This document shows, in pieces, positions 30,001 through 36,000 of a stretch of DNA of 62,509 nucleotides. Numbering within the stretch: the stretch's first letter is position 1; each line of letters starts with the position of its first letter. A program made the position numbers. Origin of the DNA: Escherichia phage vB_EcoP_phi349. The DNA lies in sequence record PV189405.1. The stretch is one strand, 5' to 3'.

Positions 30001-33000
30001 TCAATTCTGTGAGTACGGCGTTCATTTTTTTCTCCTGATATTTTAATGTCGGTGGGGGTGTTATGCGATTGGTGAGGTGTCAGCTTCTTCTACCAGCTTT
30101 TCCAGTTCATCCAGCTTTCGGGAAAGAATTTCACCAAACAGATGAAGTTCTGTATCTGCTGTGATCGGGATCGGAACAAAGCGTATTCCACTTCTGGCAA
30201 GTTGATTTGCGATTTCCAGGCACTGCCTTAATTCAACTGGTGATGCCTTTGTCAACGTCGTTTTTTCGCTCATTGGTTTTCTCCAGAAATTTAACAATAC
30301 CCGGAACCATCTCAATGGATGGTGTTCCGCATTGGTTACCCCAGACATCAAATCCATGCGAGGTGTGACGGGCGAACAGTTCTATCCGGGGAACATCGCC
30401 AAGAAGTTGCACAAGTTTTTCTCGCGCCATATCCGGCTTGCGGGAGTGATCAAGGCGCGGTGCAGTGAATGACTGGATTATTCCGGCGTTAATGCGTTCA
30501 GGCAGATTTCCTTTCACTGCAAAAAGGCAGTCTTCGCTGTTAGCGCGAGTGGTGCTACCCATACCCATGACCAGCTTGTCGGTCTGTCTTTTCCCGCATT
30601 TGTTCCAGGTTAATCCTTTCATCGTCACCAGACGAAAGCCCCACGCTTCTACAACCTTCAATGCTTCAAGTGGTTGTGTAGGCACCCACCACATAGCCAA
30701 CAGGCAATTATCGGCTGCCAGTTCCCATACCGGGAGGCGGCAGATATCCAGAAGACTCATGACCGGATATTTAAAACTTGCACCGCGTTGACCATCGGTT
30801 GCTTTGTCTCGGAATGTCCAGGGGGGATCTGCGTAAATGAGAGTGTATTTTTTCGTCATAGCGCGTTTTCAAACTCATCAATGTAAAGTCCTGCTTTAAT
30901 CAGTCGGCGACGGCGTTCGGCCTTTTGCACGTATTCCTCGCGACAGTTTTTTGCTGCGTGTTCACGGCTTCTGCGACTGAATGGAGGAACGGCATTGCGT
31001 GAGCGAGGTGTGTCACGACGAGGATTTGATTCGAGGGAGAAAAAGCGATCAACGATTCCGGTGTCTGTGGTGAATGGTTCTGAAGCCTTTATTTTCACAA
31101 CCTTACTGCCCTTTGTCAGGCCGCGAGCTACCTTGTTGAACTCGCAAAGTGAAACACCAAATTTCTCTGCTATTTCACTGCCAGTAACAGGACGACCACG
31201 AGACTGAATCATCCAGGTGACGCGTTCTTTTAACCCACGGAAGGCACCGGGCCTTCCAGAACGCCTGTAGAAAGCGATCTGTTTCAAATTTTTGTCTCCA
31301 GATATGAAAACCCCGACGGGATGTCGGGGATGGTAGGGGAAGTTACAGGCTTAACGAGAAGCCTTTTCGGGAATTTCGATCTGACAGTCTTGAAATATCC
31401 TGTAGCGTGCGGCGCATTTCTTCCGTCAGATGTTTGAAGGCGTTAAATTCAGCGACAGCCGCATCGACGTTATAGCCCTTGCTGTGTAGTTCGTTGAGGA
31501 TACGCATGGTTGGGCTTGGCATGTCGAAGAGTACAGAAACGTCCAGGTTAAGAGTTTTTCGATCAACATAGCTCATCATGGAGTAGGGGTGGTGCTCTGA
31601 AAACCACGATAGAGGGTAGTTGATAGATAGTGTTGATTCTGGAAGCTGAAGTTGTTCTGGGATTTTTTGACTGAAATAGCAGTCTTCCAGTTTTTCGAAC
31701 ACTTCCCACGCCCGATCGGTTTCGAGCATTTTTGCGTGACGGGCTGCGCCGCGTTCTGTCCAGAGGATGAGGGAGCGAACGTTACGGGCGATTTTCACAG
31801 AGTAGTTAAAAGCTACTCTGTGCTTGAACTCACGTAAAGTTTCACCTTCAAGTTTGAAGAAGTGTTTTTCCTCAATGAAACGACCTTTGTTTTCGTGGTG
31901 ATTCTGGCGAATACGAATAGCTTCTGTGCCGTAAAGGTGCGCCAAAAGTTCGGTAGTGATAACGGGGATCTGCTTGTAAGTAATCGTGGAGAGTGTTTCA
32001 ACAGAAACTTGAGTTGTCATTATGACGCCCTCGAGTGGTTTCTAAACTATCACCACCGTTAGGTTCGAATCATCGGGTGGTGAGACGTACAGGGTTCGAA
32101 CTACCGGGAAACCAACCGGCGAGCTTTTCAGCTCCCCTATACGCCCCACCATAATTCAGATGTGCGCGTGCATACGACAATAAAAAACACGCTCGCGGCG
32201 TGTCTCTGTCGCGGTTTCTATCCGGGGTTCGAATCCCGACGGTCAACTCGACCGTGCGAAGAATATAATCCCGGATATGTGTTGTCGTCAACAAGTGGCG
32301 TGCTATCATCGAATAGTGTTCTATCCTACTCAGTGAGGTTTAACATGCGTACAACCCAACAATTCAGCATTACATTAACTGAACCGCCCCGGTTTTCCTG
32401 GAGAGTGTTTTATCTGTGAACTCAGGCTGCCAGATCATCGTTTCCGATGGAAGCATAATAAGCTTTTTCTGCTTCTGCCGGAGGAGTATGGCCCAGCCTT
32501 CCCAGCAATCGTCGATTGTTATACCAGTCCACCCACGTTAGTGTGGCCAGTTCCACTTCTGCACGGTTTTTCCAGCTCTTACGGTGTATTACCTCCGCTT
32601 TGTAAAGACCATTGATGCTCTCAGCCATCGCGTTGTCATACGAGTCGCCTGTACTCCCTGTTGATGCCAGTAATCCGGCTTCTTTTAGTCGCTCCGTATA
32701 GGCCAGTGACACATACTGAGAGCCTTTATCGCTGTGATGGATGGTGCCAGACGGACGACGGGCCCACAACGCCTGCTCCAGCGCATCCAGCACGAATGTC
32801 GTTTCCATAGACGATGAGACCCGCCACCCCACGATGTATCCGGCAAACACATCAATGATAAACGCCACATAGACGAAGCCCTGCCATGTGCTGACGTAAG
32901 TAAAATCAGCCACCCACAGCTGGTCAGGTCGTTCTGCCACGAACTGACGGTTTACGCGGTCGCCTGCGGCAACGGCTTTCCGGCTGATGGTCGTACGGAC

Positions 33001-36000
33001 CTTTTTACCCCGGAGAACACCGGCAAGTCCCATAACCGCCATGAGACGTGCCACTGTACATCTGGCCACCCTGATTCCTTCCCGTAACAACTGACGCCAG
33101 ACTTTACGCACACCGTACACCTGATGATTTTCATCGTATACGCGCTGTATCTCTCTCTTCAGCCAGTCGTCGTGCTGCGCACGGGCACTGCGTTTATCCG
33201 GATGATGTCGCTGTTGCTGACAATGGTAATACGTTGACGGGGCAATATGCAGTTCGCTGCATACCGGTCCGACCCCGTACTGCTCACGCAGCTTATCCAG
33301 CAGTGGCATCATTTTTTCCAGAGGCGGTCGAACTCCGCCTTCGCAAAATAAGCGGAAGCCTGGCGAAGGATATCGTTACTGCGGCGCAGTTCACGATTTT
33401 CACGTTCCAGCTCTTTCAGACGCTGACGTTCAGCGCTGGTGAGCCCACCATCACCGCCCCCGGTATCCCGCTCATGCTGGCGAACCCAGACACGCAGAGT
33501 CTCCGGCGTACAGCCAATCTTTGGGGCAATGGAACAAATTGCCGCCCACTGTGAGTCATATTCATCCTGACTTTCCAGAACCATACGAATCGCCCGCTGA
33601 CGGACTTCGGGGGAAAAACGAGTATTTTTAGTCATCCTGTTTACCTCTTTCTCAGGGAGTTTAGTCTCCAGGATTTCCGGGGCGGTTCAAACCAACGAAA
33701 TGGCTGACATGGTGCGCGCCCGTGTGGCTTCCGGTGCATACGCTTCAGAAAGCGAAGTTATTCGTGAAGGGCTTCGTGCACTGAATGAACGCGACAAAGC
33801 AATGGAAGCGTGGTTAATACACTCAGCCGCGCCGCCACTCGACGCTATTCGTGAGAACCTAGGCAAAGGGCACTCCATTTCACAGGTTCGCTCTGAGATT
33901 CGCGCCCGGAACTAATCTGCATGGCATATGAAGTGCCACACTAACAAACTGCTCCAGGTATGGGAATAGTGTCACTTGCAGCACCTATTAGAGATCCGAT
34001 AATGAACATCATAGCAAGGTTCTTTTATTTGATAATTTTCTGCATGGCAACATCAGGATGCACTACCACTACGAAAATAAATCGCGGAGATGAAAAGGAA
34101 CAGTACATCATTGCCTGTGGTGCCGCTACACCATGGGGAGTATGCTATGATAAAGCCAATGCCCTATGTAAAAATGGATATAAAGACATTTTAAAGGAAC
34201 AGGGATTTAACAGGAAAGAATTAACCATTGAGTGTAAATAAGGCCATCATTTGCAACGTTGAAAAAATTCGCCCGTGCTACAGGGAAAAACTCCAGATCC
34301 GCTTCGTTTAACTACGAGGATTACCACTAATGGCGATGTTTACCCCCCCTCATCCTGGAGAAATTATTGCTGATATTCTGGAAGATCAGAATATTGGAAT
34401 CAGGGAACTGGCAAGAGCGCTTGATGTCGCGCCTTCCACTGTTCAGCGACTGGTTTCAGGTAATGCGACAATATCTCCTGAAATGGCTGTTCGTCTCGCT
34501 GCTGTCCTGGGGGGAACTCCGTCTTCATGGATTCGTCTCCAGACGGCATGGAGCCTTGAAAAAGCGGAAAGAGAAGTTGACGTATCTCATCTCTCAACAA
34601 AATACCGCCCGGCAGAAATTTCGCCTCATGCTTAACCACCGCGCCGTCATTCTGGCGGCGTCGGAGAGTGGAGGATATCAGGTTCCGAATTCTGCGTTGT
34701 TCTCCGCGTCCAGGATTTCTTCAATCTTCCGTACTCCCCGATTATTGTATCGGAAGCTTTCTACCTGCTTATCCGAATACGGGGATTTGTCGATGAACCA
34801 TTTCCCGTATTGTTCGGTTTTGAGCATGTAGGTATTGGCAATGCGACCAACCTTGTTAGCGGATATTTTGAGTTTTGCTCCAACTTCTGACGCCGAATAG
34901 TAATGTTCATTAATCATCGGTAGCGGGATTACGTTAGCGCCTACAACGGGATTAACCAGGCTGGCGGCAACGACTTGTTTAGCTTCAGGGGCAAGGTTGG
35001 GGAGGAAGCCGAAAAGGTCTTTCATTGTATCGACGGTCATTTTCAGCGCCCGTGCTTTACGGAATTCCTCAAGGCCGTTAGTCGAATGTTTCGAGGTGAT
35101 TTTTTGTTGCAGTTGCTGTTGCATTGACTCCAGTTGATCGACCAGCGAACGACGGACGGATTTAGATTCACGAGCGGCAACCCGAAGCGCTTGTTTATAG
35201 GTCATCACAATAACAACCTGATCCGCACCGCCTTTTTTCTTATCCATGGGGGTTACGAAAATTTCGTAACCCCCCCCCATCAAGTTCATCTTTGATGCGT
35301 GCAATGAAGTCGTTGTTGCGTACTTCTTTTTCACCGCACAGTCTCCGCGCTTCATTCACCATTTTCAACAGAGCCTGGCTGTCGATAGTTCCATTTTTCA
35401 TTACATTATTTTTCATCGTTTTAACCTCTCAAGCTCGCCGTAGCGAGTTCAGATAAAAGAAATCCCCGCGAGTGCGAGGATTCTTATTCACCTTTGACCA
35501 AGTTGCAGGTTAGCCACGGTTAACCTCCTGCGGCGGTTCTGGTAGCGGCATCCAGTGAGTTGCTTGCTCAATACCATTACCCGGCTTAATCGTTGCATCT
35601 CCGCGCCGAAAGGTGCTTCCGGTATAGCGTGCGGAGCATATTAGCGGTTCAACCAGAGAGCTATCGAAATTCACCGAAATAAGCACGTTCTGGCCCTTTT
35701 CAGGCATTCGATCACTACAGCTTATCCAACTATCCGGAGTTACCGGAGAGTTACCAGCCTCATAAGCGGATTTCATCCAGTGCGTAAGCGTTTCGATGCT
35801 TACACATCCGCAATCAACGTCTATTTTTTCTTTTTGTTCTGACAACCATTCCTGGAATGACAGCTTGGCAGTCTGGCTTGCTGGATCAATTCGTGGCAGG
35901 CCGATATATAGTGGTACATTTCCCGGCTCCATCGAATTGTCGGGACAAATAAACGTGTTACAACCATATTTAACGAGCTCAATTCCCACTGTGTCGATAG

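Follow-up and report, generated by a model that had tools for sequence, protein, structure and literature searches.

Interruption of an orphan parD antitoxin gene by IS629 in the Stx2-converting Escherichia phage vB_EcoP_phi349, very probably a late stage of parDE addiction-module decay

Results

The sequence of Escherichia phage vB_EcoP_phi349 (record PV189405.1; 62,509 nucleotides, analysed over its full length and called the window below) contains a gene of the ParD antitoxin family that is interrupted by one copy of the insertion sequence (IS) IS629. The window belongs to a Stx2-converting phage and carries stx2A at 55479 and stx2B at 56450, with three tRNA genes ahead of them. Its nearest relatives are the PA2-type Stx2a phages PA2, PA8, VT2phi_272, Stx2a_F765 and phi346, classed as Oslovirus PA2, and the parD locus lies in the integrase-proximal accessory region of this PA2-type (PST2, Oslovirus) Stx2a-converting phage.

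Analysis of the interrupting DNA revealed a complete IS629 of the IS3 family at 32380-33689 (1310 bp, minus strand), with its transposase genes antisense to parD, its right inverted repeat (IRR) end at 32380 and its left inverted repeat (IRL) end at 33689. The sequence TGAACCGCCCCGG begins at 32380 and its reverse complement ends at 33689, and no further copy of it occurs in the window. The terminal inverted repeats are 25 bp long, imperfect (22/25 matching) and start with 5'-TG. All 1310 bp (1-1310) were 100% identical to the feature annotated as 'insertion sequence:IS629' in VT2-Sakai (AP000422), so that the identity proposed in an earlier, sequence-only reading of this DNA was borne out by alignment; the element is present once in the window. 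The open reading frame (ORF) list gave orfA at 33309-33635 (minus strand, 108 amino acids (aa), HTH_Tnp_1, PF01527, E=2.4e-12) and orfB at 32422-33312 (minus strand, 296 aa, DDE integrase core, PF00665 rve, E=9e-28, together with HTH_21). The two genes overlap by 4 nucleotides (nt), with an A6 run at the overlap (IS coordinate 373), and the ALIL pseudoknot, the programmed -1 frameshift signal of the IS3 family, was found across the overlap at 33238-33354 on the minus strand (Rfam RF01497, 121.5 bits against a gathering score of 50). The OrfAB transposase of IS3-family elements is made by -1 frameshifting. To judge by its intact ORFs and ends, the copy in the window is apparently functional.

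The element is flanked by the trinucleotide AAC, at 32377-32379 on the left and at 33690-33692 on the right, and this triplet occurs singly in the empty site of related phages. IS629 target duplications have been reported as 3-4 bp (PMC3271280); the present one is 3 bp, as reported, and a 4-bp duplication does not fit (TAAC on one side, AACC on the other). An accidental 3-bp repeat has a chance of 1/64 and is weak evidence alone. The decisive test was the removal of the IS together with one AAC, which yielded a sequence identical at 390/390 nt (100%) to the empty site in PA2, VT2phi_272, Stx2a_F765 and phi346, where AAC is carried once; insertion with duplication of AAC is thereby established, and the boundaries, the 1310-bp length and the AAC repeats first read from the sequence are all confirmed by the inverted repeats and by this match. 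At the junction between IS and parD, CAATTCAGCATTACATTAAC is joined to TGAACCGCCCCGGTTTTCC (39 nt in all). Searches of 50,697 phage records, 5,426 complete E. coli genomes, IMG/VR and the representative genomes of GTDB yielded no second occurrence of this IS/parD junction, which indicates that the insertion is recent and rare.

The ORF restored by removal of the element reads MRTTQQFSITLTNEMADMVRARV... and has 85 codons plus a stop; the sequence-only reading had given the same single ORF correctly apart from its length, which it put at 84 codons. The 5' fragment of parD (32345-32379, plus strand) comprises codons 1 to 12, codon 12 being represented by its first two bases, and encodes the beta-strand MRTTQQFSITL of a ribbon-helix-helix (RHH) domain. 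The 3' fragment (33693-33915, plus strand) starts with the third base of codon 12, ends with the stop codon and encodes the helices of the RHH domain together with the C-terminal region that binds ParE. IS629 was thus inserted after the second base of codon 12, between the DNA-reading beta-strand (residues ~5-11) and the two helices. The 5' part of the gene now runs into the IS and would give a 24-aa peptide, MRTTQQFSITLTEPPRFSWRVFYL followed by a stop codon, and the 73 codons of the 3' part are severed from the promoter and the Shine-Dalgarno sequence; the insertion is therefore predicted to be a null allele of parD.

The restored protein matched PF03693 with 32.7 bits (cut-off 21) and TIGR02606 with 53.4 bits (cut-off 46.2), both models spanning only residues ~6-51, that is the RHH part. 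Over its full length it matched PHROG 6494 'antitoxin' (E=3.5e-58), and more than 2,600 database proteins aligned across 95-100% of its length. The best sequence matches in the PDB were Caulobacter ParD1, Vibrio ParD2, PrpA and M. tuberculosis ParD1. An AlphaFold (AF2) model, made with a protein that differs from the restored ParD solely by N85K, had a predicted local distance difference test (pLDDT) score of 88.9, and its top Foldseek matches were all ParD antitoxins; the RHH domains superposed with a root-mean-square deviation of 1.3-1.4 Å over ~45 residues, the Foldseek E-values being weak (at least 0.085) for so small a domain. Even the Sphingomonas and Aquimonas homologues keep the strand MRTTQQFSITL almost unchanged, and in RefSeq the uninterrupted gene already carries a ParD-family antitoxin annotation. 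The interrupted gene is a true ParD-family antitoxin gene, as its RHH/ParD-like character had led the sequence-only reading to propose, and its uninterrupted form, which that reading had suggested seeking in related Stx phages, was found in PA2, VT2phi_272, Stx2a_F765 and phi346.

Homologues of this parD are followed by a toxin gene. In Salmonella prophages an 86%-identical parD is followed, after 5 nt, by a gene for a 99-aa ParE (PF05016), and the parD homologues of Sphingomonas (64% identity) and Aquimonas (56%) likewise precede a PF05016 ParE gene. Among 5,426 complete E. coli genomes the parD cassette was present in 365, and 328 of these are annotated with a ParD antitoxin and a RelE/ParE toxin, here too as a 99-aa parE 5 nt after parD; approximately 37 E. 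coli genomes carry parD only, all with the same breakpoint (query positions 1-277). In Yersinia (loci L008-L011, 3264-3553) a 77%-identical parD is followed by a parE that is frameshifted and split over two frames, with ORFs of 42 and 57 aa. The window contains no ParE-like ORF in any reading frame, neither by tblastn nor by a profile built from eight ParE partners (best E=0.16), the same profile recovering the broken Yersinia parE at 1e-33; the earlier statement that no cognate toxin ORF follows parD thus holds.

Alignment with the parDE cassettes of Salmonella, Yersinia and E. coli defined what is left of the toxin gene. The DNA homology of the cassette covers parD, its stop codon, the 5-nt spacer and the bases ATG GCA TAT GAA GT (ATG ACA TAT GAA GT in Salmonella and E. 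coli), which correspond to parE codons 1-5. This parE remnant lies on the plus strand at 33921-33944; homology ends at about 33934, and the frame closes at the stop codon 33942-33944 after MAYEVPH. With only a 5-codon stub (33921-33934) where an adjacent cognate parE would stand, the locus in the window is a ParD-family gene and not a functional parDE module. An identical stub is present in VT2phi_272, whose parD is intact, and the scar is common to every PA2-type phage with an intact parD. It is clear from this that parE was lost first, in the PA2-type ancestor, and that IS629 entered parD later. The frameshifted parE of Yersinia is an intermediate stage of the same decay. The description of the locus as a decayed toxin-antitoxin module is accordingly supported by the stub and by the intact relatives, with the amendment that the toxin was lost in an ancestor of the PA2 lineage and not in the window itself.

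A candidate parD promoter with a TG-extended -10 element, TTGTCG-N16-(TG)cTATCAT, was located at 32282-32309 (plus strand) by a consensus scan, with the hexamers and spacing given for it in the sequence-only reading. The scan by itself was not significant (4 sites against 2.9 expected), and the elements are kept in cassettes from four other contexts: the -35 hexamer, the TG and a compatible -10 hexamer (TATCAT/TATTAT/TAAAAT) are conserved in the cassettes of Salmonella, Yersinia and other E. coli prophages. Just downstream of the -10 element, and about 21 bp from the -35 hexamer of the divergent isrK promoter described below, lies a candidate ParD operator, AATAGTGTTCTATCCTACT (32312-32330, plus strand), which agrees at 14/19 positions with the palindrome AATAGGATTAAATCCTATT. 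This palindrome sits between the -10 element and the start codon at the Sphingomonas and Aquimonas parD loci, and the window equivalent, proposed from this conservation, has the same position. Both promoter and operator are putative; a site at 32312-32330 would be placed as is classical for autorepression only, and not for control of a neighbouring promoter. A conserved palindrome (A)ATAGGATTAAATCCTAT(T) was seen between the -10 element and the start codon at distant parD loci (L012, 2965-2985; L016 and L018, 2963-2981) encoding the same N-terminal beta-strand, and is a candidate operator of this ParD subfamily. A repeat search with a 6-nt seed detected no repeats in 32230-32350, and the short palindromes were seen solely with a custom script.

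Downstream of parD, the 414 bp up to the next antitoxin gene, higA, are a patchwork of toxin-antitoxin debris. The place of parE is taken by a small lipoprotein-like ORF at 33960-34241 (plus strand; 93 aa, or 70 aa from 34029 in RefSeq; phrog_9924; lipobox ATSGC), for which a role in superinfection exclusion would be conjecture. The segment around this ORF, 33935-34243, is restricted to the PA2-type lineage and always in the same place (44 phage records and 42 genomes). The ORF is followed at 34244-34311 (plus strand) by a frameshifted 3' fragment, the last ~22 codons, of a different helix-turn-helix antitoxin gene resembling gp22 of Shigella phage POCJ13; gp22 follows a RelE/ParE-family toxin, and the fragment in the window is without one A of an A7 run. 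Next comes a higB remnant at 34307-34330 (plus strand), consisting of the last 7 codons (FNYEDYH and stop) with a TAATG overlap onto higA. The gp22-like fragment and the higB stub are joined at a shared TTAAC, which suggests illegitimate recombination at a microhomology. The gene higA itself (34330-34635, plus strand, 101 aa) encodes an orphan HigA-family antitoxin (TIGR02607, 87.2 bits against a cut-off of 47.7); its Cronobacter homologue is preceded by an intact HigB, of which 7 codons are left in the window. The region has thus lost two toxins and kept two antitoxins. A second anti-repressor-like gene (PHROG 1726; 34678-35355, minus strand) is convergent with higA, and a terminator-like hairpin at 34272-34284 (minus strand) lies ~400 nt past the end of that gene, within the spacer between the lipoprotein gene and higA.

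Although seemingly intergenic, the 324 bp upstream of parD form the leader of an ORF6N anti-repressor gene that is transcribed divergently (31343-32020, minus strand; PF10543). The leader contains, on the minus strand, an isrK-like RNA with its own terminator at 32182-32255 (Rfam RF01394, 53 bits against a gathering score of 50) and a C4 antisense RNA at 32073-32156 (Rfam RF01695, 70.1 bits against a gathering score of 45), and it folds far better than shuffled sequence (z = -5.15). The consensus scan placed a candidate isrK-C4-ant promoter, TTGACG-N18-TATATT, at 32262-32291 (minus strand), and the predicted isrK start (~32255) coincides with position 1 of the isrK model. The candidate promoters of isrK and parD stand back to back, their -35 hexamers sharing 2 bp, and the overlap is spanned by a palindrome of 14 bp, TGTTGTCGTCAACA; its core TGTCGTCAAC is invariant in 5/5 aligned cassettes. 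While the interpretation of the locus given in the sequence-only reading holds, this leader had gone unnoticed in it, as had the parE stub and the higB scar. A tRNA-like GGTTCGAATCC motif at about 32228 was considered and rejected; ARAGORN did not call it a tRNA, and it falls within the isrK-like RNA. PHANOTATE calls a 79-aa ORF (32070-32309) in the leader of phi346, which is probably spurious.

Adjacency of parD and isrK was also observed in Salmonella and Yersinia prophages. More generally, several enterobacterial lambdoid prophages (Salmonella L003-L007, Yersinia L008-L011 and Cronobacter L026-L028) carry toxin-antitoxin cassettes, either parDE or higBA, beside the isrK/C4 leader, and in those prophages the far side of the ORF6N gene is taken by hok/sok (PF01848 and Rfam sok), so that addiction modules recurrently cluster about the anti-repressor gene. 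In Cronobacter it is a higBA cassette that occupies the slot of parD next to isrK. The intact parDE of E. coli was located in the nin region in 5/5 prophages sampled, and isrK, C4 and anti-repressor genes were all absent from its vicinity. The nin-region parDE of E. coli (L020, 3856-4000, and L033) retains a minus-strand TTGACG-N18-AATATT and a hairpin GCCAG...CTGGC like the first stem of isrK, and no full isrK or C4 was present at these cassettes; this suggests that the nin-region cassette moved from an isrK-adjacent slot. The adjacency of parD and isrK looks like a shared insertion slot for accessory cassettes and not like a functional partnership.

Discussion

We consider it very probable that IS629 entered a parD gene that was already an orphan, and that the allele in the window belongs to the late decay of a parDE addiction module. 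In an ancestor of the lineage, parE was deleted after codon 5 and the small lipoprotein gene put in its place; later, IS629 transposed into codon 12 of the 85-codon parD, duplicating AAC and parting the DNA-reading beta-strand, the promoter and the ribosome-binding site from the rest of ParD, with a null allele as the expected outcome. Inactivation of an antitoxin is lethal only while the toxin is still made. As the phage encodes no ParE, loss of ParD would free no toxin, and an insertion in the antitoxin gene would be tolerated because the toxin had gone earlier. To judge from the gene content of the window, the insertion is most likely neutral.

Three points weigh against this account. The ORF, promoter and Shine-Dalgarno sequence of the orphan parD are intact in all of its carriers, ~48 phage records and ~37-42 genomes, and this could reflect a retained function; the phages bearing the orphan are 99.7-100% identical at the parD locus, and its conservation is for this reason of little weight. 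A ParE-type toxin may be encoded elsewhere in the host chromosome, the sequence considered here being that of the window. Finally, the consensus scan revealed no independent plus-strand promoter between 33690 and 34330, which bears on polarity of the IS over the lipoprotein and higA genes.

The orphan ParD and HigA might instead have been kept as anti-addiction or cross-immunity factors against the ParE and HigB of co-resident or incoming prophages, in which case IS629 destroyed a protective gene. An anti-addiction role for orphan antitoxins is an established proposal (PMC7354431). Here two of them are immediate neighbours, each with its toxin cut to a few codons and with the antitoxin ORF, promoter and ribosome-binding site intact; a target toxin exists in the population, since intact parDE of the same subfamily is common in E. 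coli prophages, being found in the 328 E. coli genomes mentioned above, including the Shiga toxin producers (STEC) O111, O145, O103 and O91, and 11 of the 365 matching E. coli genomes have two copies of the locus. Loss of the toxin with retention of the antitoxin is, however, the sole viable route of decay and is expected without selection, and the existence of the IS-disrupted allele means that this host at least can do without parD. Over its C-terminal third, which binds ParE, the orphan ParD also departs from its counterparts in intact E. coli and Salmonella pairs at about 11/33 positions, a divergence that argues against good cross-neutralisation. Polarised amino-acid changes numbered 6 on the orphan branch and 1 on the intact branch, a small sample in which the difference is not significant (p=0.125). 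By region, the non-synonymous/synonymous changes were 0/1 in codons 1-52 and 6/5 in codons 53-85, again too few for significance (p=0.125); the synonymous changes likewise cluster C-terminally, so that relaxed constraint accounts for the pattern no better than a mosaic or recombinant origin of the segment. Retention for protection is on balance unlikely, and we are equally doubtful of a selected 'antitoxin-only' island in which ParD and HigA shield the Stx2a lysogen from the ParE and HigB of competitors, or in which ParD acts on the isrK/C4 promoter.

Control of the divergent isrK-C4-anti-repressor operon by ParD, for which Mnt of P22 immI is the model, would make the IS629 knock-out one that alters the anti-repressor, prophage induction and Stx2 production. 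This can be argued from the back-to-back promoters with their overlapping -35 hexamers and the palindrome across them, from the recurrence of the juxtaposition in Salmonella and Yersinia prophages, and from the homologous isrK-orf45-anrP operon of Gifsy-1, which controls the anti-repressor and prophage induction (PMC4825925). The conserved AATAGGATTAAATCCTATT-like motif, however, lies at 32312-32330 on the parD side, about 21 bp off the isrK -35 hexamer; the nin-region parDE of E. coli stands away from isrK, C4 and the anti-repressor (5/5 sampled), and Cronobacter has higBA in the same slot by isrK. We regard such a regulatory role as very unlikely. That an assembler misplaced a multi-copy IS629 would be suggested by the many copies present in O157 genomes (PMC3271280) and by the occurrence of the junction in no other record, and is extremely improbable: both junctions are base-exact, the flanks are 100% identical to the empty site, and the single-copy AAC is duplicated over 3 bp, a signature of transposition that a mis-join would not yield.

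Insertion of IS629 into an orphan parD is thus our preferred reading, and it gives the allele little importance in itself, since the hopping of IS629 in Stx2a prophages is routine and documented and orphan antitoxins are common. Its novelty is modest and lies in a previously unrecorded IS629 site and in the direct documentation of the final stage of parDE decay. The loci can be ordered from intact parDE (Salmonella and E. coli) through the frameshifted parE of Yersinia and the 5-codon stub of the PA2-type phages to the IS-disrupted parD of the window, a series that exemplifies the rule by which loss of the toxin has to come first. The insertion site could in addition serve as a typing marker for a lineage of PST2-type Stx2a phages. 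If an antitoxin-only island or an action of ParD on the isrK promoter were true, the IS629 allele would alter how prophages compete, or else spontaneous induction and the output of Stx2a; likewise, were orphan antitoxins functional or were ParD to act on the anti-repressor operon, the allele could bear on the induction of Stx2a phages. The evidence favours neither.

The leader upstream of parD keeps the same order as Gifsy-1 isrK-orf45-anrP and P1 immI (c4-icd-ant), namely promoter, isrK with its terminator, C4 and ant. In contrast to those anti-repressor operons, the operon in the window only neighbours the finding and is left intact by the IS, and any functional link to ParD would be hypothetical. 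With the type II parDE modules (TIGR02606/PF03693 and PF05016; Caulobacter ParD1-ParE1, 3KXE; M. tuberculosis ParDE1, 8C24; V. cholerae ParD2-ParE2, 7R5A) the restored ParD shares an N-terminal RHH domain followed by a helical C-terminal region, although its identity to the solved ParD proteins is only about 30-36% over the RHH domain. The nearest intact parDE relatives have the antitoxin gene first and the toxin gene 5 nt on, whereas in the window parE is down to 5 codons and parD is split by an IS; a palindrome that is a candidate operator lies between the -10 element and the start codon.

The position of IS629 has been described as the main source of variation among the PST1 and PST2 Stx2a phages (Yin et al. 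2015, PMC4587872); the element disrupts a methyltransferase gene in PA2 and is intergenic in PA8 (PMC4587872). The window shares with these polymorphisms of O157:H7 Stx2a phages both the element (IS629, of the IS1203v/IS3411 group of the IS3 family; 100% identity) and the phage group (PA2, PA8, phi346 and VT2phi_272), and its insertion is an event of the same type as those described in methyltransferase, roi and lysozyme genes, at a site, codon 12 of parD, that is not among the IS629 sites described for Stx2a phages (PMC4587872). Like the orphan antitoxins viewed as remnants of toxin-antitoxin modules or as anti-addiction factors (PMC7354431), the locus is an antitoxin gene on a mobile element whose toxin has been deleted. 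It differs from them in that its status as a remnant is documented by the residual start codon of the toxin gene and by intact and frameshifted intermediates, and in that the orphan has itself since been inactivated.

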